Counted from the first letter of the stretch, positions 20,531-51,719 are shown. The stretch: DNA of 64,000 bases from Macrostomum lignano (GCA_002269645.1 NIVC01000292.1:620001-684000), one strand, 5' to 3'. A program made the numbers and translations. The notes: a model not told the origin generated them from the sequence alone.

Positions 20531-20868
20531 CTGGCGGGGACGGCAAATTTGGCGCAAGGAATTTTCTAATATTTCTACTGGCAGTAGAGTAGCGAGGATA
20601 TGCGCACAAAAAATCGGAGTTTTGCAAAAATAATAATCTGACAAATTTGCATGGAGCATCAGCTGATCAGGCAGAATTATTTGATTAAATCTGTAGAGTT
20701 GATGATTGAGTGACACTGCATAAAAGCGTGTGGGGGCAGAGGGGCAGGATAGAGAATGCACTGGGTCTGTTACTTAGGCCACAGGAGGAGCTGAACTAGA
20801 TTAGGCAAATCTGATAAAATTATTGCACATTTATAATTATTGTAATTAGGCTGGCAAGGAGACGGAAG

Positions 20869-22625
<1,757 letters not shown>

Positions 22626-35650: not shown

Positions 35651-36245
35651 TCTCTGTTTAGTCAAATCGCTGCTCCAAGAATTGCACGGAAACCCCAAAC
35701 CAGCTACTGACAGTAGAAACGAAAGCAAAAGCTTGTCAACCGTGCAGACTCAGTCAGAAATTGCACAAAATGTCATCAGAAACTCGGTGACAAAAACATC
35801 ACGCGCTGCCCCGGTGCCCAGAGCTGGGGTGGCTGCTCGCACAGACAGGCAGGCGGGTGGCCTTCAATCTCTCTCTGCAGTCTCTCACAGTGCCTGCGAA
35901 CTTCTGTTTTGCACCACGCCACCTGAGTGCATCGCCCCACCTCTGTGCTCGAGCCCTCCGAGTCTCCGAGCCCAGACTGCAGCCCCAGAACAATGGGGCT
36001 CTCCGGCCCCCTCACCGCCCCCGCCCTGCGGCTCTAAGGTGGGCGGCAGCTCGAGTCTCAACTGTTGCCATGGTGACCGGGCAGATGGGGCAGGTGAGGC
36101 TTTACTAATTGCTGCTGCAGGTGCAGCTGGGCTGGGGAGGGCAGCTGCGCTTTTATGACTGTTTTGTAAATTCTCAGCTGCTGCGACCTGCCTGCTCAGA
36201 AAGTGCAAAGTAAAGAGTTGGACTGCTTTGTGGCATCAGCCTGCC

Positions 36246-37020
36246 TGTGCTGTCTCCCTCTGCTGTCTCCCTCTGCTGTCTCCCTCTGCTATCTCCCTCT
36301 GCTGTCTCCCTCTGCTGTCTCCCTCTGCTGTCTCCCTCTGCTGTCTCCCTCTGCTGTCTCCCTCTGCTGTCTCCCTCCGCTGTCTCCCTCTGCTGTCTCC
36401 CTCTGCTGTCTCCCTCTGCTGTCTCCCTCTGCTGTCTCCCTCTGCTGTCTCCCTCTGCTGTCTCCCTCTGCTGTCTCCCTCTGCTGTCTCCCTCTGCTGT
36501 CTCCCTCCGCTGTCTCCCTCTGCTGTCTCCCTCTGCTGTCTCCCTCTGCTGTCTCCCTCCGCTGTCTCCCTCCGCTGTCTCCCTCTGCTGTCTCCCTCTG
36601 CTGTCTCCCTCCGCTGTCTCCCTCTGCTGTCTCCCTCCGCTGTCTCCCTCTGCTGTCTCCCTCCGCTGTCTCCCTCTGCTGTCTCCCTCTGCTGTCTCCC
36701 TCTGCTGTCTCCCTCTGCTGTCTCCCTCTGCTGTCTCCCTCTGCTGTCTCCCTCTGCTGTCTCCCTCTGCTGTCTCCCTCTGCTGTCTCCCTCTGCTGTC
36801 TCCCTCTGCTGTCTCCCTCTGCTGTCTCCCTCTGCTGTCTCCCTCTGCTGTCTCCCTCTGCTGTCTCCCTCTGCTGTCTCCCTCTGCTGTCTCCCTCTGC
36901 TGTCTCCCTCTGCTGTCTCCCTCCGCTGTCTCCCTCTGCTGTCTCCCTCTGCTGTCTCCCTCTGCTGTCTCCCTCTGCTGTCTCCCTCTGCTGTCTCCCT
37001 CTACTGTCTCCCTCTACTTT
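36246..37020. repeat. 13-bp minisatellite (TGCTGTCTCCCTC)n, ~59 copies
   Basis: Direct. Confidence 0.97.
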
Positions 37021-37506
37021 CCGCTCGTGTCTGTGCCTGCAGTTGCCATGGACAGAAGGGGATAAAAGAATAAATATATGAGGCGAGATAAAACCAAATG
37101 GAAAGTTTCAAACATAAAAATATATTTCAAATCGGTGCCAAACAGGTTGAATATAAAAATTTTCCTCATCTTCATCATTTGGAAATGAAATCGGGGAATT
37201 CGGCAGACCGGGGCAGCGGGAAAATCCAAGGCTCTGGAGAAGCAGCCGAGAGTTTTGCTGAGCTCTGCTCAGGCATTCTGGGATAAATTGGTTGCTTATG
37301 GAACTGGGATTTGCATGCAAACTTTATAGCTCAGTCGGGTGCACAAGAAGTACTGAAGATTGCATAAAGGTTTAATGGGGTTAGCGATCTGCATCTGAAT
37401 ATTAAATAAATAATTGTGTTAATTTAAGCCACTGTATGGGAGCCCAGCTCAGTGAGTGGCACACTTTGGATACACGGCAACATGAGGGCTTATCTTAGAG
37501 TACTTC

Positions 37507-37996
37507 TGTCACTGACTCATGCCAATCTGTCACTGACTCATGCCAATCTGTCACTGACTCATGCCAATCTGTCACTGACTCATGCCAATCTGTCACTGAC
37601 TCATGCCAATCTGTCACTGACTCATGCCAATCTGTCACTGACTCATGCCAATCTGTCACTGACTCATGCCAATCTGTCACTCACTCATGCCAATCTGTCA
37701 CTCACTCATGCCAATCTGTCACTGACTCATGCCAGTCTGTCACTGACTCATGCCAATCTGTCACTGACTCATGCCAATCTGTCACTCACTCATGCCAATC
37801 TGTCACTCACTCATGCCAATCTGTCACTGACTCATGCCAATCTGTCACTGACTCATGCCAATCTGTCACTGACTCATGCCAATCTGTCACTCACTCATGC
37901 CAATCTGTCACTGACTCATGCCAATCTGTCACTGACTCATGCCAAACTGTCACTGACTCATGCCAGTCTGTCACTGACTCATGCCAATCTGTCACT
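37507..37996. repeat. 21-bp minisatellite (CACTGACTCATGCCAATCTGT)n, left part (continues at 48569-48697)
   Basis: Array split by the LTR element at CACT. Confidence 0.96.
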
Positions 37997-38853
37997 TGTA
38001 GAGTGTTCTACCTCCCGTTAAAAAAAGGAAAAAAGAAGATAATCGTATAATACTACTATAAGTAAGTAAGTACACGCATGTGCGCCTAAGCTTTGAATGA
38101 ATCACGCTACCAGAAAAAGATGTTACCAGAATAATACGCCATGAGCCATTTTCCCCTTTTAGCGCAACACGTGAATTGTCATGATACTATTTTGGATCAA
38201 AAACTTGTCTATAAATACAAGCGATCTGAAGCGGTACCGGAGCCATTCTCCCCACGGAAGAGGAGCGCTCCGAAGAGGAAGCCTTAGGAGGACTTCCTGA
38301 TATACCAAGTCAATCGAGACTCGGTCGAGTTGTTGCGGTAAGCCTTCCTTATTTGCGCCGTTGTGTTAGAGACGTCTCGCTCAAGTCTATTGAGACTTGA
38401 GTCTATTTGAGTCTGTTGAGACTCTTGAGTCTGTTTAGACTCCATTGGTTGCAGTCTCCAGAAGGACTGCCCCTGATAGATCTTAGAGGACTATCAGTGG
38501 TTTCCGGAGCTATACCTAGAGTGCATAGAGGCACTGCTCGAAGAAGGAGGCTTAATTTAGACCGCAGTTTGGCGCAGGGATCCCTTTGTTAATTCGGAAG
38601 CTTCCCATTGGTCCGAGCGACAGAATCCGGCCGGAACTATTTGAAGAAGAAAGAAGAATCGGACCCGATCTACAAACGAAAGTCAGAAGTGACTATACGA
38701 GAGCAACTGAAGACAATCGAGAACTACTCCGAGAGATCTCCAAAGGACTCAAGGTAATTGAATACCTTCTGTTGACTTACTGGGTTGCCTAGCTGCTGAG
38801 CTAGAAGTGATTGTTCCTTGATTATCGAAAGTCGGGTAATAAGGAACACATCA
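37997..38853 (+). repeat. 5' LTR (857 bp), TATAAAT at 38210
   Basis: Matches 47713-48568 except one A in a homopolymer, as far as can be seen by eye. Confidence 0.97.
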
Positions 38854-39567
38854 ATTGGTGATCTCGCCCTCTCGGCACTACTCAAACTTTGAGCAATAGC
38901 CCTGATCAAGCTATTGTAAAGTGACGACAGAGCGACTTCATTAATTTTGCGCGCACGTGTTAGAGTTAACACTTTTCAAGTCCGTACGTTTTGAAACTCG
39001 AGTAAAAAATTTTGGTGTACAGGTTTGAGCACCTGTCAAATTTGAGTACTGTTTGAGCACGCGTGTTAAAATTTTGTTTTGACGAGCTCGAGCAAGTGTG
39101 AGTTAAAATAAAACCGAAATTAAATTCATCGGTACACTGAAAACAAACCGAAAATAAAAGAATCGTCGACGCAAAACAAACAAAAAAATAACGGAAACAT
39201 TTTGCCGGCACAAAAAACTAAAACTGAAATTAATTGAAACTTCGTGGAGAGCGGAGTTAATTGACAAAAGAGAGAGAGTCAAAGAAGAGAAAAAGACTTT
39301 GCAAAACAAGAAGACAAAGCCCACTTCAACTTGAAGATACACTTTGCGGGACGCCGCATAAGTGCGAAATCAGCAAGCGAACAGAACAAGTTCATTTGAG
39401 GACAACCAGTGGCAGCAAGCCACACCGCATCCGAGGCCAGCGAATAACAAATCGACACCACAAGACAATTCGTTACAGTCGAGGTTTATTCCGAGGCAAA
39501 CACCACACTGGACGATCCGTTACAAATCGATCCAGATCTTAAACTACCGTTCTATCCTATCAACAAC

Positions 39568-41868
39568 ATGGCGCGGCGCAATCCAACGGTACACAGAGAC
39601 ATCAAAGAAACGGTCGGTACCTTCTCGATGGAGAAAGATTTTAACACATTTGTCGACCACTTTGACCTGGTATGTAGGGAATACAACCTACAAAATCCAG
39701 AGAAGGCACAGCTGCTGCCACCTCTTCTCCAAGGTACTGCGCGAGAAATTTACGGCAAGCTGGATGCAGCAACACAGCAAAATTATCCAGCACTAATCAT
39801 TCAACTGCGCGCGCATTTCAACCGTTGCGGCACAAACAGATCAGTGCTGCTGCACAAGTTGCATAACAGAAGGATGCAAGCAACAGAATCCTTCCTCGCC
39901 TTTGTGGACGATATCCGCCAGATAATTAAGGCACTGCATCAGCCACCGCTGCAAGCGGCGGACCAACCGCCACTGGGAGCGGCAGAATTGGCCGCCAGAG
40001 AAAGACAACGATTGATGGATCGCGAACAAAACCTCATCCTGCACGTAATAAACAACGCACAGCCGTCACTTCGGGATAGACTTTTGCGTGAAAATATCGA
40101 AACCGAAGAAGACCTTTTGCGGTGCGGAATGCAATGGGAAGCCAGTGCCCCATTAATGACGACAGGCAACAATGAAGTGCAGAAACTGACGCAGCAATTA
40201 AACAAATTAATGCAGCACCAGACAGCTGCTATCGCCGAACAAAAAAGACGAAATGAACGAGCCTCAGCCAGATGTTACTACTGCGGACGAGAAGGACATT
40301 ATCAGATTAATTGTCCCCATTGGTCGACAAGATACGACAAGCCACGACAGACATTCAGCAATCAAAAGCCGCAGAAACCATGGCAGCAATATCAAAATCG
40401 CCAACAAGACATGAGACGCTTCGGAAAGGATGGCCGCTTCGGAAATGATGGCCGCTACGGAAATGACGGCCGCTTCAGAAATGATGGCTACAGGCCACGC
40501 AATGCCAGGTACGCACAAAGACAGCCAACGCAAGCAATGCCACGATACGCGAATGCCATCACGTACACACCGGAAAATGAGCAGCAGGAACAGCAAGTGT
40601 TCACAATTGACGACTTGGAAATGGACTTCACAGTCCCGGAACTTGACATCAGCTTGATCGAAAAGAAGACGACGCACGAGGACAACACTGACAACACAGA
40701 AGAGGCGAATGAAACCGAAATGATCGAATTAAAAGAGACCACCGGAGACAGCAGAGAAAACAGGAAGAAAGTAAATCACAAAAAAAGGGAGGAGGCGGAG
40801 AGCGACACCGGCAACGAAGAAAAGATGAAGACTGGCAGACAAAACAACTATGAATCGACAACAGTGGATGACAACAAAACAAGCACGAAAGACAAAGAAA
40901 TGAGGGAAGAAGAAGAATGTATAAGTTACGGCAACGATCACGACTGCGAGGTGCATGATGGCACGAGCGGATACCGAGCCGAAGAAGGAATACAGGAAGA
41001 ACTGAGAGCGGAAAATCTAAGCTCCGACAGCGATCAAGGCTACGAAATACAATGGAAAGATGAAGAAATGGAAAAAGAACAAATGAAAGAAAAGCCGAGT
41101 TCCGACAGCGACGAATGCTACGAGATCCGATACAAACGAAATGGTGAAGCCTATATTCAAACGGTCGACTACAAGGCAGAGAAAAGATACCAAACGCAAT
41201 GGAGTGAAACAACGGAAACATCGGAAGAAGCTACAGACGAAGATACTGAAATAACCAAAGAGCAAAGCAAATCAGAAGCCTTCCGCCTGAATCAGCCAAT
41301 GGAACAACCGAAAGAATACGATGCGGACATGGAGGATAACGAATGGCAATCGCAGCCAATGCCAGCAAAGACAACGGCAAGGTCCAAGAAGTGGAAAAAC
41401 TGGCTGCTCTGGATCATCGTGATACTACTGATAGCAGTAGTCGCCAAAGCAACGGCAATGGAGAAACCAATGATATGTCCAACGGATGCGCATATCCAAC
41501 CAATGATCTACAAGATACCAACCGACATCAAATGCAGCTACTTCAAGACAAACCAGACGAAGCCAAAGAAGATCACAATTGATCTCTACAAAGCTAACAT
41601 CAAGAAGCATCGACAACTCGGAATAGTGTGCTTTAGAGACAAGCACCTAGTGGAAAAAGTTTGGCGAGGACAGTGGAACAGAATTCGATTTTGGCAACAC
41701 GAACTACATGTGTCGCACGCTGAATGTCTACAATGGAACCAAACACTGTTCTCAAAGGATGGTCAGCTAGAACCGGATGAGAAAGTGGGGAGGCACAACT
41801 TTACCGAACGAAGAACTCAGCAAACGGACGATATGTACACTTTTCGGAAGCATGGACTAACTACATGA
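39568..41868 (+). CDS. gag: Gag (capsid, one CCHC knuckle, acidic linker) fused in frame to a signal/TM segment and the envelope N-terminus
   Basis: CYYCGREGHYQINC (40273-40314); hydrophobic WLLWIIVILLIAVVAKATA (41401-41457) followed by a Cys-containing ectodomain with NQT sequons. Confidence 0.9.
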   Translation: MARRNPTVHRDIKETVGTFSMEKDFNTFVDHFDLVCREYNLQNPEKAQLLPPLLQGTAREIYGKLDAATQQNYPALIIQLRAHFNRCGTNRSVLLHKLHNRRMQATESFLAFVDDIRQIIKALHQPPLQAADQPPLGAAELAARERQRLMDREQNLILHVINNAQPSLRDRLLRENIETEEDLLRCGMQWEASAPLMTTGNNEVQKLTQQLNKLMQHQTAAIAEQKRRNERASARCYYCGREGHYQINCPHWSTRYDKPRQTFSNQKPQKPWQQYQNRQQDMRRFGKDGRFGNDGRYGNDGRFRNDGYRPRNARYAQRQPTQAMPRYANAITYTPENEQQEQQVFTIDDLEMDFTVPELDISLIEKKTTHEDNTDNTEEANETEMIELKETTGDSRENRKKVNHKKREEAESDTGNEEKMKTGRQNNYESTTVDDNKTSTKDKEMREEEECISYGNDHDCEVHDGTSGYRAEEGIQEELRAENLSSDSDQGYEIQWKDEEMEKEQMKEKPSSDSDECYEIRYKRNGEAYIQTVDYKAEKRYQTQWSETTETSEEATDEDTEITKEQSKSEAFRLNQPMEQPKEYDADMEDNEWQSQPMPAKTTARSKKWKNWLLWIIVILLIAVVAKATAMEKPMICPTDAHIQPMIYKIPTDIKCSYFKTNQTKPKKITIDLYKANIKKHRQLGIVCFRDKHLVEKVWRGQWNRIRFWQHELHVSHAECLQWNQTLFSKDGQLEPDEKVGRHNFTERRTQQTDDMYTFRKHGLTT

Positions 41869-43346
41869 CACGAAACAGTTACCTAATCAGGAATATTCCA
41901 TTCTATCACAATCCTTTTGAAAAAATGGAGTCGCTACAACTGCAATTAAGCGACTGCCGATACAGCAAAGGATGGTGTCCAACGCCGATACTGCGGAATG
42001 AGGAACTATACAGCTTACCGTTGAGTCCAACATATCATCAAGACTATCGATGGCAAATTATACGCAGAGGCGACTCACGATATGAAGAACCATCTAAGTC
42101 ACGACAATACTTCTTCGCGTGGGAAGTTGAGCCGGAAATTGACTGCAAGCTTCAAAAGTATCACACAGTTGAAGGAGGACTACTGTCAAATACGTTTTTG
42201 GCAAAGTCAGGAGACTTGGCACTGACGTTTCAAAAGAAACCAGTCGAGCAAAAACTGAAATGCAAGGATACAGACAAGACACTATTCATCTCGGAACAAG
42301 AGATACCAGTCTACGTAAAAGATGACGACAAACAAACCTTTCTGGCGATCATCAACGGAACGTATCAACAGCAGGAACAACAGAACAGACGACGACGTGA
42401 CATCGAACGTCCCAAACTGGTGTCAAACCGACTACTGTCAGCAAAGATAACGGCTTTGGATCACAATCTACACAACCAGTTAAACCACTTGCATCGAACA
42501 CTGGTCCAGCTAACTTGCAAAATGCACGCAATCAACTTAAATTATGCCAGACAAAACTACTATGTCAACCCTACGATGACTTTTCGTAAAATCACCGGAA
42601 TGACGAACGTTTTGGCAGTTCCAATATACGAGCATCTGTTAATATACAAGTGCACGCCGATACAGCACTTTAACATCTTGCCGTCGAACACGTCAACAAC
42701 CTGCTACGACAAGCCAAGGATTGAAGCGTTCTACGAAGGAAAACGAATTCAGGGATTCTTGGACACGGTACACAACATCATCGTTGGCACCGCAATACCG
42801 AGACCTTGCACCACGGCAGCAAACTACTATCAACTGGACAATGCACTACACGTCATCAAAACAACTGGAACGACAGCAAACGTCACAGAACCGGAAGTAA
42901 TCGTCGACGAAAACTACGACATGGAGGATTTGAAAATCCGATTCAACAGAACGAAGTATACGCCATTCGCCGATATCCAACTTGACGAGATAACACCAGG
43001 ATGGACGATCAACGACTTCTTGCAAGCGTTCATCACCCAACGCAAGATGATTCACCAGCTGTTCACAAGAAAGGACAAAGGAACCGGGACAGGAAGATTT
43101 CCCGTCCTTGTTTCAATGGACAGCGCCATCAAATCATTTTGGACAAATAGCTTCTGGGAGCTGCTCAATGGAAGAGGCAGTCTCTATCAAGGATTCATCT
43201 TCTACGGTGCTTGCATTGTGTGGATTGTCACGGCAATCTTCATCATTTCATCGATCGTACGGTGCTTCAGTCAAACTTGTCCAAGAGCTAAGAAGACAGT
43301 GAATGCCATAATGCAAAGAACGACAACGGAAGCGACAACAGTTTAG
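41781..43346 (+). CDS. env: Envelope glycoprotein, class III (gB/chuvirus-like), central and C-terminal part
   Basis: Frame open from 41781; DCRYSKGWC, furin-type RRRR (42387-42398), long helix then NPT..RK..G...V.A......L.I.KC (gB domain III/IV-like), CYDKP...GFLD, several N-X-S/T, TM FIFYGACIVWIVTAIFIISSIV. Confidence 0.8.
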   Translation, partial: ESGEAQLYRTKNSANGRYVHFSEAWTNYMTRNSYLIRNIPFYHNPFEKMESLQLQLSDCRYSKGWCPTPILRNEELYSLPLSPTYHQDYRWQIIRRGDSRYEEPSKSRQYFFAWEVEPEIDCKLQKYHTVEGGLLSNTFLAKSGDLALTFQKKPVEQKLKCKDTDKTLFISEQEIPVYVKDDDKQTFLAIINGTYQQQEQQNRRRRDIERPKLVSNRLLSAKITALDHNLHNQLNHLHRTLVQLTCKMHAINLNYARQNYYVNPTMTFRKITGMTNVLAVPIYEHLLIYKCTPIQHFNILPSNTSTTCYDKPRIEAFYEGKRIQGFLDTVHNIIVGTAIPRPCTTAANYYQLDNALHVIKTTGTTANVTEPEVIVDENYDMEDLKIRFNRTKYTPFADIQLDEITPGWTINDFLQAFITQRKMIHQLFTRKDKGTGTGRFPVLVSMDSAIKSFWTNSFWELLNGRGSLYQGFIFYGACIVWIVTAIFIISSIVRCFSQTCPRAKKTVNAIMQRTTTEATTV

Positions 43347-46300
43347 AACTAACAGAAACTGCACATTGTGAGGTTCAAGGGCAACCGACACTAGCAACGC
43401 GGCTATATCCATCGATTCCGACAACACCAACGGCACCAAGGATACAACCACCCAACTATCAAGCAGAACAGCACGAGCCAAAATGGCCGGAAAACTACGT
43501 CTGTACGCTACACGCCGAGATTGGCAAAGCAATGGCTCAGGTCATTGTCAACAACTTGCCATGTCGAGCACTACTGGATTCAGGCAGCTCGATCACAGTC
43601 ATCTCGCAACAATTATGCAACAAGCTACGACTCGCGGTACGACCAGCAGCAATCGCAGTTGCAGGAGCAGGAGGACATTCACTCAACATCCTAGGAAAAG
43701 CAGATATCGACTTGAAAATTGCTAATAAACAGCTGACGGTCCCGACGTACATCATCGACAGACTACCAAACCAAGACGTCATCGTTGGAATCGACACGTT
43801 CAAGCAGCTTCAACTACCATTGACCTTCGACTTCAACAAGCAAACGTTTAGGATCGACACGGTGGAGCAACCGCTGATCAACCAGATTCGAGTACTACCG
43901 AAAGTAACTCTGCAGCAAGATGTCATTATCCAGCCTGAAAGCGCATGCTGGGTCAGAGCGAAAACGACCAGCGCGGCAGATGAAGCAATGATATTTGATC
44001 CACACAGGAGAGTCACGGCAAAACATCAAATCATGATGCCTACGGCACTAGTGCTGGTTGCAAAGGATAAGCAACTGCCAGTACAAATCTTCAACCCGAA
44101 CACAGAAACGGTTCATCTACGACAAGGAATGTGCATCGGTCATCTCAACACCCAAGCATCGGTTATGCTGATTGAACAAGCGACTCCACGACTAACAGAG
44201 GAAGAATTTCAAAAGAAGATCAATTTGGATGACAGCCCGATTACGGAACAGCAAAAGAGGAAAGTTCGACAGCTGTTGTGGAAGTACAACGAAGCCTTCT
44301 GCCATCATGATTACGACATCGGACGAGCCAAGGACATCAAACAGGAAATCAAACTTCTGCCGCACACGGAACCAATTCAGTGCAAGCCGTACCCGATCGC
44401 CAAGCATCTGCAACAACACTTTGACGAAATCATCGATAAAATGCTAAAGCACGGCATCATCAGCAAAGCTATTTCGGCTTACTCCTCACCGTGCCTACTG
44501 GTACAAAGAAGGAGACAAACGAAAGACGACTCGTATGCGACTTCAGACTGTTGAACAAGTACATACCGACGGATCAGCAAAGCCTACCGAAGATCTCCGA
44601 ACTACTAGCAAAGCTCAACACGGCAAAATTGTTCACGGTGTTCGACCTACGTCATGGATTTTGGCAAATTGAAATCGAGAAAGAGTCACGACAGTACACG
44701 GCTTTCAAAACCTACAATGGACAAGTATACGAGTACAATCGATCGCCGATGGGACTCAGCAACAGCCCAGCAACGATGAGCCGACTAACAGCATACATGC
44801 TTGCAGGATGCACGAACCTGTTGCACTATGTTGACGACATCTTGGCCCACGGAGAAGACTTCGAACGACTCTATGAAGCGACGGAGAAGGCCCTCGCGCT
44901 TATACAACGTCAAGGTCTGAAGCTACAACCACTAAATGCAAATTCTTCCGAGACAACGTGCGTTACCTGGACATCAGGTGACAGCCAAAGGAATCTCACC
45001 GGACCCAGACAACGTGGAAAAGGTGAAGAAGTTTCCTACGCCAACCAGTATAACGAAGGTCCAATCATTCCTTGGACTTGCGCAATACTTCAGGAAGTTC
45101 TTACCTAACTTCGCAAAGACAGCAAAGCCACTGTACGACCTGCTCAAGTTCGACAAATGGAAGCAAGACAACTGGACACAGAGACAACAGGAAAGTTTCG
45201 ACGAAATCAAACGACAGCTGACATCAGACGCACTGCTACAGCATCCGGACTTCGACAAGCCCTTCATCATCGAGACAGACGCCTCAGGAACGGGACTCGG
45301 AGCAGTCCTACTACAGGAAACCGAGGACAAGAAGGAACGACCTATTGCTTACGTCAGTCGAGCACTCAAACCAAATGAGACAAAGTGGTCAGCTACGGAA
45401 CGAGAGCTACTAGGAGTCTTGTTCGCCCTGCGACAGTTTCATTACTACATCTATGGTTCTCCAATACAGACGATAGTACGCACGGATCATGCACCATTGA
45501 CCTACGTCGTAACTACAAAAGGACAGACCAACAACCGACTCATCAGGATGACACTCAAGATCCAGGATTACAACTACAAACTCGTCTACAAACCAGGAAT
45601 TACCAACAAAGCCGCGGACGCCCTGTCAAGAGCCTATGAAGTCAACGCCATTCATCCAATCCCTAACATCAAGGAGTTGGTGGATGAAACCGAGCGCGAC
45701 AACTTCTACCAAGCGGTTAAAGACGACGACAAGAACATCAAACTTAGCCCCATGGAACGAAAGTTCCTACGCAAGCAACGACAACACCTAACAATCAATA
45801 AGTCACGGCTCTACTGGATGAGCGACAATAAACCCAAGATCTACATACCATATTCGTTTCGGCAAGCAATTCTCAACGAGCTACACGACAACCCACTCGC
45901 TGGACACCTGTCGGCAGCAAAGACCATCGCGAGAGTGGAACAATACTACTTTTGGCCAACTATGTACGGCGACATCAAGCAGTATTGCAACAACTGCCAT
46001 TCATGTGCTGCATCAAAGACAGGACGACGACAGAAACCGCAGCTACAGTCCATTCCGAAGTCGACTACAATGGACTGTCTAAGCATCGACATCACCGGAC
46101 CACTGCCACCGAGCTGTCTCCAGGGCATCGCCTACACCTACATTCTAACCGCCTTGGATATCTTCTCGAAGTTTGCTATCGCCATACCGATACCGGACAT
46201 CACAGCTCAGACAGTGGCAATGAGTTTCTTCAACGAAATCATTTGCAAGTACGGCACGCCGAAGAACCTCACATCGGACAACGGATCGCAGTTTACATCG

Positions 46301-47038
46301 CAACTGTTTCAGCAAGTCGTAAGGATTCTCAACATTACGCAGATCTACACATCGACCTACAATCCGAAGGCAAACATGGTTGAACGGTTTCACCGCAACC
46401 TGCACGAGATGATTACACATTTCGCGCACCAACAGCCGGAAGACTGGATCATCTACCTGCAATCTGTAACAATGGCCTACAACAGCGCTATTCATCGATC
46501 AACGGACAATACGCCATTCTTCCTAATGTTTGGACGAGACTTCCAACCGCCGAATCTGCTCGCACAGCAATTGCTACCATCGCAGTACGTGGAAGTACCG
46601 ACTTCCATTCAGAAATTCGTCACGCAACTACACCTCGCATGGAAGATCGCCAAGCACAACATTGACAACCAGGTGGCTCTGACCACCGGCAACGACGCGA
46701 GATCGACAACCCTGACGGCCGGCGACATCGTTTACCTACACTACCCGCCGCAGCAGACGCATAAACATGCACAGAAGTATAAAGGACCCTATCGAGTGGT
46801 CCAACTAACGTCACCGACAACGGCACGCCTGGCTAATGTACAAGATCCACATCAGCACCAGTTCTACGTACACATTCATCGACTAAAGAAGATCAACACT
46901 GACACCGCGACGTTTCTACCGACATTAGACAACGCTGATCGCACGCGTTCAACGAACCGCCACATCGCGACGAAGCACGAGGAGACTCAAACGACAGATG
47001 TGAGCCAGCCACATGGCTACAACCTACGACCACGCTAG
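43292..47038 (+). CDS. pol: Pol (PR, RT, RNase H, integrase) broken by three single-base frameshifts
   Basis: LDSGSS; YSSPCLLV; FDLRHGFWQI; YVDD; ETDASG, TERELLG, TDHAPL, ADALSR; H-x6-H...C-x2-C; IDITGP, SDNGSQF, VERFH; GPY/F motif KGPYRV. Confidence 0.95.
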
Positions 47039-47158: not shown

Positions 47159-47533
47159 ATGGGCAACGCACTGTCGAAACAGGCGCCCCAGCCTCAGCAG
47201 CTATATGACTGCCCGATATGTTTAACTGATGACTTGGCTGTCAAGCCACCGACTATTTGCATCAACGAACATAAAGTTTGCGGACAATGTTTAAGCGATT
47301 CACATTATATTCAGCCATGGCAGAATTGTCCCCTCTGTAGAGATAGTTTGCGACAATGTGCCTATTGTTATTCTTGGCGCACGTTTCAATATTGTAACCA
47401 CCAACATTTTATTTGCATGCACTGTTTGAAGCAAACCGCTAGTAGGGGCGTTATAGGATGCCCCTTATGTAATAGTATGCCGCGAGACTGCACGTTTCGA
47501 AAGTGGTGTCGGATCAAACCTGATGCCACTTGA
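47159..47533 (+). CDS. 124-aa N-myristoylation-motif, tandem-RING protein inside the LTR element
   Basis: MGNALS; CPIC-x12-C-x3-H-x2-C-x2-C-x12-CPLC then CAYC-x8-C-x3-H-x2-C-x2-C-x11-CPLC. Confidence 0.8.
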   Translation: MGNALSKQAPQPQQLYDCPICLTDDLAVKPPTICINEHKVCGQCLSDSHYIQPWQNCPLCRDSLRQCAYCYSWRTFQYCNHQHFICMHCLKQTASRGVIGCPLCNSMPRDCTFRKWCRIKPDAT

Positions 47534-47712
47534 TGTCTACGCGATATTCGAGTTTTGACCGCAATATGTACTGAAAAGTTTTTAGAGTTTTGACCAAACC
47601 CTCGCTTCACTAGACGCGCACAAAATCAATTGTTTATTTCCTATATTAACTGATCACCACAGAATTTTATTGTTAAAACTCGGGACGAGTTTTTTCGTAA
47701 AAAGGGAGATTT

Positions 47713-48568
47713 TGTAGAGTGTTCTACCTCCCGTTAAAAAAGGAAAAAAGAAGATAATCGTATAATACTACTATAAGTAAGTAAGTACACGCATGTGCGC
47801 CTAAGCTTTGAATGAATCACGCTACCAGAAAAAGATGTTACCAGAATAATACGCCATGAGCCATTTTCCCCTTTTAGCGCAACACGTGAATTGTCATGAT
47901 ACTATTTTGGATCAAAAACTTGTCTATAAATACAAGCGATCTGAAGCGGTACCGGAGCCATTCTCCCCACGGAAGAGGAGCGCTCCGAAGAGGAAGCCTT
48001 AGGAGGACTTCCTGATATACCAAGTCAATCGAGACTCGGTCGAGTTGTTGCGGTAAGCCTTCCTTATTTGCGCCGTTGTGTTAGAGACGTCTCGCTCAAG
48101 TCTATTGAGACTTGAGTCTATTTGAGTCTGTTGAGACTCTTGAGTCTGTTTAGACTCCATTGGTTGCAGTCTCCAGAAGGACTGCCCCTGATAGATCTTA
48201 GAGGACTATCAGTGGTTTCCGGAGCTATACCTAGAGTGCATAGAGGCACTGCTCGAAGAAGGAGGCTTAATTTAGACCGCAGTTTGGCGCAGGGATCCCT
48301 TTGTTAATTCGGAAGCTTCCCATTGGTCCGAGCGACAGAATCCGGCCGGAACTATTTGAAGAAGAAAGAAGAATCGGACCCGATCTACAAACGAAAGTCA
48401 GAAGTGACTATACGAGAGCAACTGAAGACAATCGAGAACTACTCCGAGAGATCTCCAAAGGACTCAAGGTAATTGAATACCTTCTGTTGACTTACTGGGT
48501 TGCCTAGCTGCTGAGCTAGAAGTGATTGTTCCTTGATTATCGAAAGTCGGGTAATAAGGAACACATCA
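47713..48568 (+). repeat. 3' LTR (856 bp)
   Basis: See 5' LTR. Confidence 0.97.
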
Positions 48569-48693
48569 CACTGACTCATGCCAATCTGTCACTCACTCAT
48601 GCCAATCTGCCACTCACTCATGCCAATCTGTCACTGACTCATGCCAATCTGTCACTGACTCATGCCAGTCTGTCACTGACTCATGCCAGTCTG

Positions 48694-49155
48694 TCACTGC
48701 AGAAATTTGTGCTCCAGCAGCTCCGCGGTGGCCGCTCGCCTCCTCGGCTCCCTCTGGACGCACCGTCCGTAGAAGTCCCTCAGCAGGGCGGAGGTCCCGG
48801 CCGGCAGCTGCGGCATGTCGTGGTTTCGAATCCTCAGCGGGATCTGCTGCCACATGAGCTGCCCATTCGGAGGCTTTATCTCCAGCATCTCGAACACGGA
48901 GCAGCCGAAAGCCCACACGTCAGTCTTGCGTGAGTACACGATTCTTCCGTCCTCACTGAACAGCTCAGGAGCCATGAAGTAGGGGGTGCCGCAATCCCTC
49001 TTGGTGCTGCGCATCGTGGCGAAGACCTCCTTGGCGAGACCGAAGTCGATCAGCTTGATGAGGCCCTCGTTGGTGAGCATCAAGTTGGAGCACTTGATGT
49101 CACGGTGCAGGGTGACGGGACTGCGGCTGTGCAGGAAGTGGAGCGCTGAGCAGAT
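48694..49155 (-). CDS. Ankyrin-kinase A, last exon (MAP3K/STE11-like Ser/Thr kinase C-lobe)
   Basis: [28 protein letters not shown]; acceptor actcacag. Confidence 0.93.
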
Positions 49156-49176
49156 CTGTGAGTTGGGGAGCGAGTG

Positions 49177-49420
49177 AGCAGGGGTAGTGTGGGATCTGAG
49201 CTGCTTGGAGAAGTTTCTCACTGCTGCATGGGGTGGTGTGGGATCTGAGCTGCTTGGAGAAGTCCCTCACTGCTGCATGGGGTGGTGTGGGATCTGAGCT
49301 GCTTGGAGAAGTCCCTCACTGCTGCATGGGGTGGTGTGAGATCTGAGCTGCTTGGAGAAGTCCCTCACTGCTGCATGGGGTGGTGTGGGATCTCACTTGC
49401 TTGGAGAAGTCCCTCACTGC
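49177..49420. repeat. 49-bp exon/intron-junction minisatellite, 4 copies plus the original
   Basis: Unit = last ~24 nt of the exon plus the start of the intron. Confidence 0.92.
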
Positions 49421-49787
49421 TTCCTCATCGAAGGGCCGTCGCTGCAGCTGCATCAGCTCAGAGAGGCTGTGGCCGGAGATCAGCTCGGTGAAGATGCACA
49501 GCTTGCCCTTCTTGATGCGCTCAGACTTGAGGAACTGCACGATGTTCGGGTGCCGGATGGCCTTCAGGACGGAGATCTCCGCATTCTCCTTCTCGATGGC
49601 CTCGTCCATCAGCCTGGCGCTGCTGGCACCTTCCAGCCTGACGATCTTGACAGCCACAGTCTGGCGCTTATCGGTGAACGCCTTGTACACCTGGCCGAAG
49701 CCACCTGCTCCGAGCAGCTGCTTGTTGCCGTCACCATCGAGAAGGAAGTCCCAGCTGGAGAAGGCGGGGTCCAGAGACGGCCTCGCA
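49397..49787 (-). CDS. Ankyrin-kinase A, kinase N-lobe exon
   Basis: LGAGGFGQVY, VAVK, NAEISVLKAIRHPNIVQF. Confidence 0.92.
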
Positions 49788-49942
49788 CTGAAAGAGGAGA
49801 GGGTTGGGAGACTGAAGCACTGCGGGATTGCTGCAGAAATGGGGAACTGAGCAGGCAGGGAGAGTCTGTCAGGTGATCATTGTGAGCCACTCTTAGCTGA
49901 ACCAAATGCAATTTCTCAAGTGAAAAGTGGAAGACGGCCTGC

Positions 49943-51522
49943 CTTGCTGACGGAGTCTCCTCGGACTGCGCGTCCACCGCCCGCCGCAGCTGCAAGCCCG
50001 ACATCGCCTGGCCCAGCCTCCGCTCTTCTCCATCAGGCTGCTGCCGCCGCTGCTCTGCGATCCACTCCCGAATCCGAGCTCCGTGCTGAGAGTTCCGCTC
50101 TGCGTAGTCGGCCACCGACTTGCCACCGGAATCGAGAAAGTCAAATACGGCGAGGCCGAGAGAGTCCGCGATGAGGCGGAGCGAGTCCAGGTCGTGATCC
50201 TGAGCAGCCAGGTGAGCAGGTGTGGCTCCGTTTGAGTCTTTTTCCAACAGACAGGCCGGACCGAGCTCAGAGATGAGCCACTTGAGACAGGAGTTGGTCT
50301 CATTCATAGCAGCTTTGTGAATGGCAGTTTGTTGTAAGTAGCCAGGCTGATGGAAGCAGTCGGATCCGAGGACTGATTTGAAGAACTGCATGGAATCGGC
50401 GCCCTGAAACTTAGCAGCGAGATGGACGGGAGTGTTTCCTTGTTGGTCTCGAACGGAGAGACAGTCGGTTCCGCACTCGTTCACCAGCCACTTGAGACAG
50501 GAGTTAGTAGCTTCATTCCTAGCGGCCCAGTGAATGGCAGTGCCTTGTAAGTAGCCAGGCTGATGGAAGCAGTCGGATCCGAGGACTGATTTGAAGAACT
50601 GCATGGAATCGGCGCCCTGAAACTTAGCAGCGAGATAGACGGGAGTGTTTCCTTGTTGGTCTCGAACGGAGAGACAGTCGGTTCCGCACTCGTTCACCAG
50701 CCACTTGAGACAGGAGTTGGTCGCTCCATTCACAGCGGCCCAGTGAATGGCAGTTTCTTGTGAGTAGCCAGGCTGATGGAAGCAGTCGGATCCGAGGACT
50801 GATTTGAAGAACTGCATGGAATCGGCGCCCTGCTTCCAAGCAGCGAGATGGACGGGAGTGTTTCCTTGTTGGTCTCGAACGGAGAGACAGTCGGTTCCGC
50901 ACTCGTTCACCAGCCACTTGAGACAGGAGTTGGTCGCTCCATTCACAGCGGCCCAGTGAATGGCAGTTTCTTGTGAGTAGCCAGGCTGATGGAAGCAGTC
51001 GGATCCGAGGACTGATTTGAAGAACTGCATGGAATCGGCGCCCTGCTTCCAAGCAGCGAGATGGACGGGAGTGTTTCCTTGTTGGTCTCGAACGGAGAGA
51101 CAGTCGGTTCCGCACTCGGTCACCAGCCACTTGAGACAGGAGTTAGTAGCCCCATTCTCAGCGGCAAAGTGAATGGCAGTGCGTTGGAGTCGGCCAGGCT
51201 GATGGAAGCAGTCGGATCCGAGGCTGCGGTGAATGAGCTCCATCCATGACACATCTCGAAACAAGGCAGCCAGGTGCACAGGAGTGTTGCCTCTTTCGTT
51301 GGTGCAGGTGAGGCAGTCGGGTCCGAGTTTCTTAATAAGAGCCTCGAAGCAGCGGAGACCGTCGGATAGATAGGTCACGTGATGAGCAATGGACTGATTC
51401 AACTGGTTGATGTTGACTGCGAAGTTGGCGTCGAGCTGCCGGCAGAGGGGGAGCAGGCGGCCTGCGTCCTTGGCACGGAGGGCTGCAGCGACTTCTTCGC
51501 GCACTGAGGCTTGCTGGGCCAT
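49943..51522 (-). CDS. Ankyrin-kinase A, exon 1: ankyrin-repeat array with 213-bp (71-aa) tandem units
   Basis: Repeated GNTPVHLAA / TAIHWAA motifs; ATG preceded by ctgcagac; 3' end inferred at a GC donor matching the phase-2 intron of paralog B. Confidence 0.85.
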
Positions 51523-51719
51523 GTCTGCAGAGTGGCGCGGACTGCGAGCGCGCTGGGCTGCTCTGTGCCGCTTTTTAAATGGACGGTGCGGCGAGGCGGG
51601 CTGAGCGGCACCCGAGCCAAACTACTGTGAGTAGGCAAAGCAGAGTAAACTGCAGATGCTGTGCTGAGTCTGTCAGTTCTCAGCTCGGAACTCAGCGAGA
51701 CCGACTGCTGGCCGCAGGT

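Follow-up and report, generated by a model that had tools for sequence, protein, structure and literature searches.

A gB-type errantivirus-like element of Macrostomum lignano with a native single Gag-Env-Pol reading frame, probable assembly breaks in one copy, and a double-RING-like cassette after pol

We analyzed a stretch of 64,000 nucleotides (nt) from the Macrostomum lignano assembly (GCA_002269645.1, NIVC01000292.1:620001-684000; here referred to as the window), which harbors a long terminal repeat (LTR) retrotransposon with the gene order gag, env, and pol and a further open reading frame (ORF) behind pol. As assembled, the coding region is interrupted by five −1 frame steps. Other copies show that the family is natively encoded in one continuous Gag-Env-Pol frame, and the interruptions in the window copy are probably errors of the assembly.

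All features of the element lie on the + strand. A 4-bp target-site duplication (37993 to 37996 and 48569 to 48572) encloses a 5′ LTR of 857 nt that begins with TG and ends with CA (37997 to 38853) and a 3′ LTR of 856 nt (47713 to 48568); both LTRs were located by BLAST, as a repeat search of the whole window was swamped by microsatellites. They differ by no substitution and at one run-length position, in agreement with the near identity noted in the original prediction, which had been made from the sequence alone. A 12-mer resembling a primer-binding site (PBS) lies 2 nt past the end of the 5′ LTR (38856 to 38867), and a polypurine tract is found at 47699 to 47709. The gag region (39568 to 41388) consists of a putative capsid part, placed there by its position, a CCHC knuckle (about 40273 to 40320; zf-CCHC E value of 0.0014, below the cut-off), and then a long acidic low-complexity spacer. 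A hydrophobic segment (41389 to 41475), an Env ectodomain (41476 to 43181) with a furin-type sequence motif at 42387, and a predicted transmembrane anchor (43182 to 43280) follow, and pol comprises an aspartyl protease (43538 to 43795; E = 2e-10), a reverse transcriptase (RT; 44300 to 45108, start approximate; RVT_1 E = 5e-21), an RNase H (45173 to 45571; E = 2e-37), and an integrase whose zinc-binding and core domains (E = 6e-21 and 2e-14) extend up to the frame end (45845 to 47038). This order of Pol domains is that of Ty3/gypsy elements (Metaviridae), and a 4-bp target-site duplication was seen in seven of eight single copies with both flanks visible, including the window copy. We classify the element as a recently inserted Ty3/gypsy LTR retrotransposon with a gB-type env between gag and protease.

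Six overlapping + strand frames span 39448 to 47038 in the order 1>0>2>1>0>2, that is, with the five −1 steps originally described; the frame-ending stops are at 41866, 43344, 44552, 45106, and 47036, and the fifth frame is short (near 44901 to 44980). The distance from the ATG at 39568 to the stop at 47038 is 7,471 nt. Break 1 falls inside env (frame overlap 41781 to 41868), break 2 at the env/pol junction (frame overlap 43292 to 43346), and breaks 3 to 5 within the RT region. No canonical slippery heptamer (X XXY YYZ) was found in the four overlap regions scanned, in agreement with the original prediction, which made this point for breaks 1 and 2. The runs of identical bases at the five breaks measure 1, 2, 3, 3, and 5 bases; one break is therefore outside any run, a detail in which the original prediction fails, and the base proposed to restore the frame at that site is contradicted by short-read contigs.

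A DNA search of the species' own genome yielded 162 candidates, of which 19 were scored as copies (the window copy and 18 others, one partial). Three of the 18 carry a single frame of 2,538 codons from stop to stop; these three represent two insertion sites, as two of them share a common host flank. A separate protein search with the RNase H-integrase region (64 of 6,147 candidates scored, 65 matches) placed 11 matches in frames of 2,461 to 2,538 codons, two of which belong to a sister family that shares 73% identity in pol. All four of the long frames inspected, which were among six stretches fetched, carry gag and env together with protease, RT, and RNase H-integrase within a single frame. 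Since naturally unbroken copies exist in this family and in its sister family, the continuous frame is a property of the lineage that requires no reconstruction, and we conclude that a single Gag-Env-Pol frame is its native state. The predicted polyprotein of about 2,490 amino acids is thereby borne out: subtracting 40 codons ahead of the Met and a 21-nt in-frame difference, which the window copy has in common with one other copy, from 2,538 codons gives 2,491 residues. Substitutions between copies are predominantly silent in env (silent versus replacing, 136:40, 36:15, and 13:6) and also mostly silent in pol, and they are near even in the gag span. A short imperfect peptide repeat behind the zinc knuckle (40405 to 40500) varies in frame between copies, with the 21-nt difference. 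The earlier suggestion that the element may be intact applies to the polyprotein at most, as the accessory region after pol is partly lost in the window's subfamily.

The 19 copies together show 50 frame-shifting length differences. In every one of the 50, the variant falls short of the most frequent length, and 44 are confined to one copy; in-frame length differences number just four and nonsense substitutions two. Among 45 one-base sites, two were unclear; of the 43 used for run statistics, 35 lie in runs of at least two bases (expected, 42.5%) and 19 in runs of at least three (expected, 11.9%; p about 1e-7). The short form is a minority at the sites compared by aligning genomic copies, a check that had been proposed, occurring in 2 of 18 assembly copies at break 1 and, across different subfamilies, in 6 of 19 copies at the env/pol break. 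Two pairs of copies with a common host flank (no substitution over 500 nt) have 1 versus 15 and 3 versus 1 breaks, none of them in common. These patterns bear on an alternative that we consider unlikely, namely, that the family is indeed single framed but that at least some breaks in the window copy are genuine deletions that RT introduced or that followed insertion, in a copy that was dead on arrival. Real deletions would have to account for five frameshifts within 7.5 kb next to substitution-free LTRs, for a single polarity of all events with so few nonsense changes, and for a site that was struck in unrelated subfamilies and yet differs between near-identical copies. They would, however, fit with the three RT breaks, each of which is private to the window copy, as are 15 substitutions, and with an error rate that is not raised in the host flank, and a variant at a single locus would be invisible to short-read contigs.

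Short-read contigs were obtained from four of 24 listed runs, representing at most four studies, one of which is possibly the assembly's own source. They show a length other than that of the window at all five break sites. At break 1, the other length received all of the depth in four of four runs, on evidence that includes contigs one letter off the window over 449 to 509 nt; at the env/pol break, it received all of the depth in three of four runs; and at each RT break, it was present in one contig per run. The contigs pool all copies, and with that in mind, we put the probability that the window's five −1 steps are one-base under-calls of the assembly at roughly 80%. The under-calling that was originally proposed is thus favored by both the copy statistics and the contigs, and its restriction to homopolymers does not extend to every break.

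Several observations weigh against this explanation. As short-read contigs combine all copies and lose rare variants, they do not clear the three private RT breaks at the window locus, and one of the five breaks lies outside any base run. Genuine slippage and RT errors likewise favor runs and deletions. The flank-sharing pairs differ by 13 and 23 substitutions and hence may be true duplicated loci. Comparison with five paralogous copies revealed no consistent window-only shortening in about 2 kb of adjoining host DNA, a weak result given that about 1.3 events would be expected at the rate seen in the element. To these may be added that the topology and cleavage of Env and Pol, to which we return below, are ones that we infer from sequence. 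A second assembled version of the site where the window copy is inserted was not found; among the top matches, paralogous sites have no element attached to this flank.

The distribution of the env/pol break also invites a different explanation, in which some members of the family have env and pol in separate frames and programmed −1 frameshifting between them lowers the output of Pol. This break is the most widely shared one, and the env/pol junction would be a sensible place for regulation. Nevertheless, 13 of the 19 copies are continuous in frame there, the scanned overlaps are devoid of a slippery heptamer, the short form is without depth in three of four short-read runs, and the sister family is continuous across env/pol. 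We rejected programmed frameshifting as the principal explanation, and we regard it as highly improbable.

Some of the copies have unusual structures of their own. Two tandem copies (L004 and L005; G000:C2447:181702-203300) have a common middle LTR; the flanks on the outside correspond to two further insertions that are separate from each other, and the outer LTRs belong to different subtypes, which suggests a recombinant or an assembly chimera. In another copy (L003), the 5′ and 3′ LTRs are only 94% identical, and a clean target duplication is absent.

The nature of Env was examined with a natural sibling Env as the query. A word-index search retrieved one relative only; a full HMMER scan retrieved 62, with identities of 22 to 30% except for three close ones. 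A profile of 24 Env sequences matched herpesvirus gB chains with a best E value of 4e-15, and the predicted structure of the sibling Env (pLDDT confidence score, 75.6; predicted template modeling score, 0.47) matched gB in Foldseek with an E value of 3e-21 and a template modeling score of about 0.4. Env is accordingly assigned to class III, with the herpesvirus gB-type fold. Exactly two hydrophobic segments occur in the whole coding span, the ones at 41389 to 41475 and 43182 to 43280 that flank the Env ectodomain, and they suggest how a single chain might be handled. Gag would be synthesized in the cytosol; the first segment would act as an internal signal sequence cleaved by signal peptidase; the Env chain would be threaded into the lumen of the endoplasmic reticulum and undergo glycosylation and furin cleavage; transfer would stop at the second segment, so that the chain re-enters the cytosol; and the element's protease would there free itself, RT-RNase H, and integrase. 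A single threaded polyprotein would yield equal amounts of Gag, Env, and Pol without a frameshift or a spliced env message. Unlike in retroviruses, placing Env inside a single chain, with Gag before and Pol after it, would force both membrane threading and equimolar products.

The ORF after pol (47159 to 47533, 124 codons) corresponds to the N-terminal portion of a gene that has 222 codons in longer copies; with 150 of 212 candidates scored, it has at least 145 genomic matches. In the longer copies, a paralogue of 210 codons comes after the 222-codon gene, and both genes also occur in the sister family; near 47523, the window ceases to match the long form, and it is missing the second gene. 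All eight aligned proteins (21 to 73% identical) share sixteen invariant Cys/His ligands, which form two C3HC4-like modules, as well as an invariant Arg after the first module. For three divergent pairs, the ratio of nonsynonymous to synonymous substitution rates (dN/dS) is 0.09, 0.22, and 0.20, and the first of these pairs, with a dS of 2.2, is near saturation; the ratio is 1.34 in one near-identical pair, where 11 changes are too few to weigh, and undefined in one saturated pair. The accessory genes are conserved and under purifying selection, and they vary in number. Intact-length units number between one and three per element, usually with two paralogues, and longer, partly decayed arrays occur elsewhere. 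Among five loci chosen for clustered hits (L080 to L084), one holds three intact-length paralogues in a row, two hold arrays, each roughly 8 kb long and rich in decayed units, that adjoin an integrase end, and two hold nested element fragments. Between two copies (L066 and L069), dS is 1.5 to 2.2 for the RING-like genes and 0.45 for the adjacent RNase H-integrase region; because the former is far above the latter in the same two copies, the cassette seems to have been swapped between subfamilies.

A confident model of the 222-residue protein (pLDDT, 82) contains two zinc modules and a helical domain. Profile and fold matches to RINGs are weak: the Pfam match has an E value of 0.003, below the cut-off, and the top Foldseek matches are RINGs at E values of 0.03 or weaker (VIA, Z about 5, residues 16 to 64). 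The C-terminal helical domain gave unspecific matches only (Z of 6.2 or less). Searches outside this genome detected no relatives of the RING-like proteins at an E value of 0.001, and the Atlas yielded just generic clusters of viral RINGs whose recognition fell below threshold, which provides no evidence of origin. Neither our literature searches nor the main-text passages of PMC12801592 contained an account of double-RING-like accessory genes after pol, which is weak evidence that the cassette is new. The accessory genes would have to be expressed apart from the polyprotein, and their products are most likely host modulators of the ubiquitin-ligase type. We tentatively speculate that the products of the expandable cassette might act as ubiquitin ligases of the element's own, directed at silencing or antiviral factors of the host. 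One accessory protein starts with MGxxxS, which we take to be a myristoylation-like motif, and might instead provide the membrane targeting that Gag seems to lack, in the manner of the Z protein of arenaviruses.

Most copies of this young multicopy family look broken in the present assembly, probably for technical reasons, and counts of intact elements are hence too low. If the cassette does serve in counterdefense, this family would be one of the rare invertebrate retroelements with host-antagonist genes that expand and contract. The finding as such probably reduces to an assembly artifact in a catalogued family; the threaded polyprotein and the RING-like cassette remain of interest.

The surroundings of the element are repetitive. 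A 21-nt minisatellite of about 29 units surrounds it (37505 to 37996 and 48573 to 48699); flanks of other copies are unrelated, and there is thus no sign of insertion targeting. On the − strand, 48694 to 51621 contains ankyrin-like repeats and kinase-like exons, recognized by eye, that form a host unit repeated in tandem on several contigs. Long simple-repeat arrays at 20770 to 21350 and 36159 to 37100 yield spurious open frames.

The family itself has been catalogued. It is very probably Platyhelminthes_Rhabditophora_Mlig_errantivirus_2, listed with an 863-nt LTR and 16 copies in row 1445 of Supplementary file 1 of PMC13524379, in which elements were classed by GyDB profiles. The listed element has an HSV/gB-type Env, an identical PBS 12-mer, and an LTR length matching the 863 to 864 nt of most sibling copies, and its 16 copies compare with the 19 scored here; the window's subfamily deviates from the commoner form in its LTR (857 nt, about 92% identical) and its shortened 3′ region. 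The tRNA type of the listed element is given there as “others,” and the one guessed pattern that we tried produced no convincing match of a tRNA gene to the PBS-like 12-mer. The traits of gB-type errantiviruses are present here, including the gB-like ectodomain with hydrophobic flanks, env between gag and pol, and many near-identical recent copies. The same paper describes the GAG-ENV-POL order with a gB-type Env in Nematoda, Bryozoa, and Platyhelminthes and reports that such elements are not monophyletic. Hence, neither the gene order nor the family is novel here. The terms “single ORF,” “polyprotein,” “frameshift,” “fused,” and “RING” do not occur in the main text of PMC13524379, and a literature search for gag-env-pro-pol or single-frame elements of this order found no account of them.

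Non-envelope accessory genes after pol have precedents in Ty3/gypsy elements. LTR elements of bdelloid rotifers carry extra ORF3 genes there that encode esterases or exonucleases (PMC5408684), and Cer1 encodes CERV, an RNA-export factor (PMC10309623). The family studied here differs from both in having tandem zinc-finger paralogues of variable number; “RING” and “zinc finger” are absent from the rotifer paper.

With regard to the position of Env, nematode endogenous retroviruses, as cited in PMC13524379, likewise have Env before pol. Nineteen long relatives of the sibling Env, picked from the 62, were scanned. In 11 of them, a single predicted protein holds the Env match ahead of RT, and two of these 11 are named from nematodes; being predicted proteins, the relatives possibly derive from spliced models. 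Nematode endogenous retroviruses with a continuous gag-env-pro-pol frame have reportedly been described by Sacco et al. in 2022. Such a frame is what we see in the present family, although not in the window copy as assembled; the host phylum is a different one, and the Env identity is only 22 to 30%. A flatworm annotation contains a second, distant single-chain Env-Pol family (P0003), of about 2,850 residues, whose Env is 29% identical. Finally, the hookworm Atlas virus encodes a stop-free polyprotein of 2,828 residues with Gag, Pol, and Env (PMC9094657). It resembles the present family in joining all three products in one polyprotein but is a Belpaovirus in which Env comes last and is a class II fusogen of the phlebovirus type.

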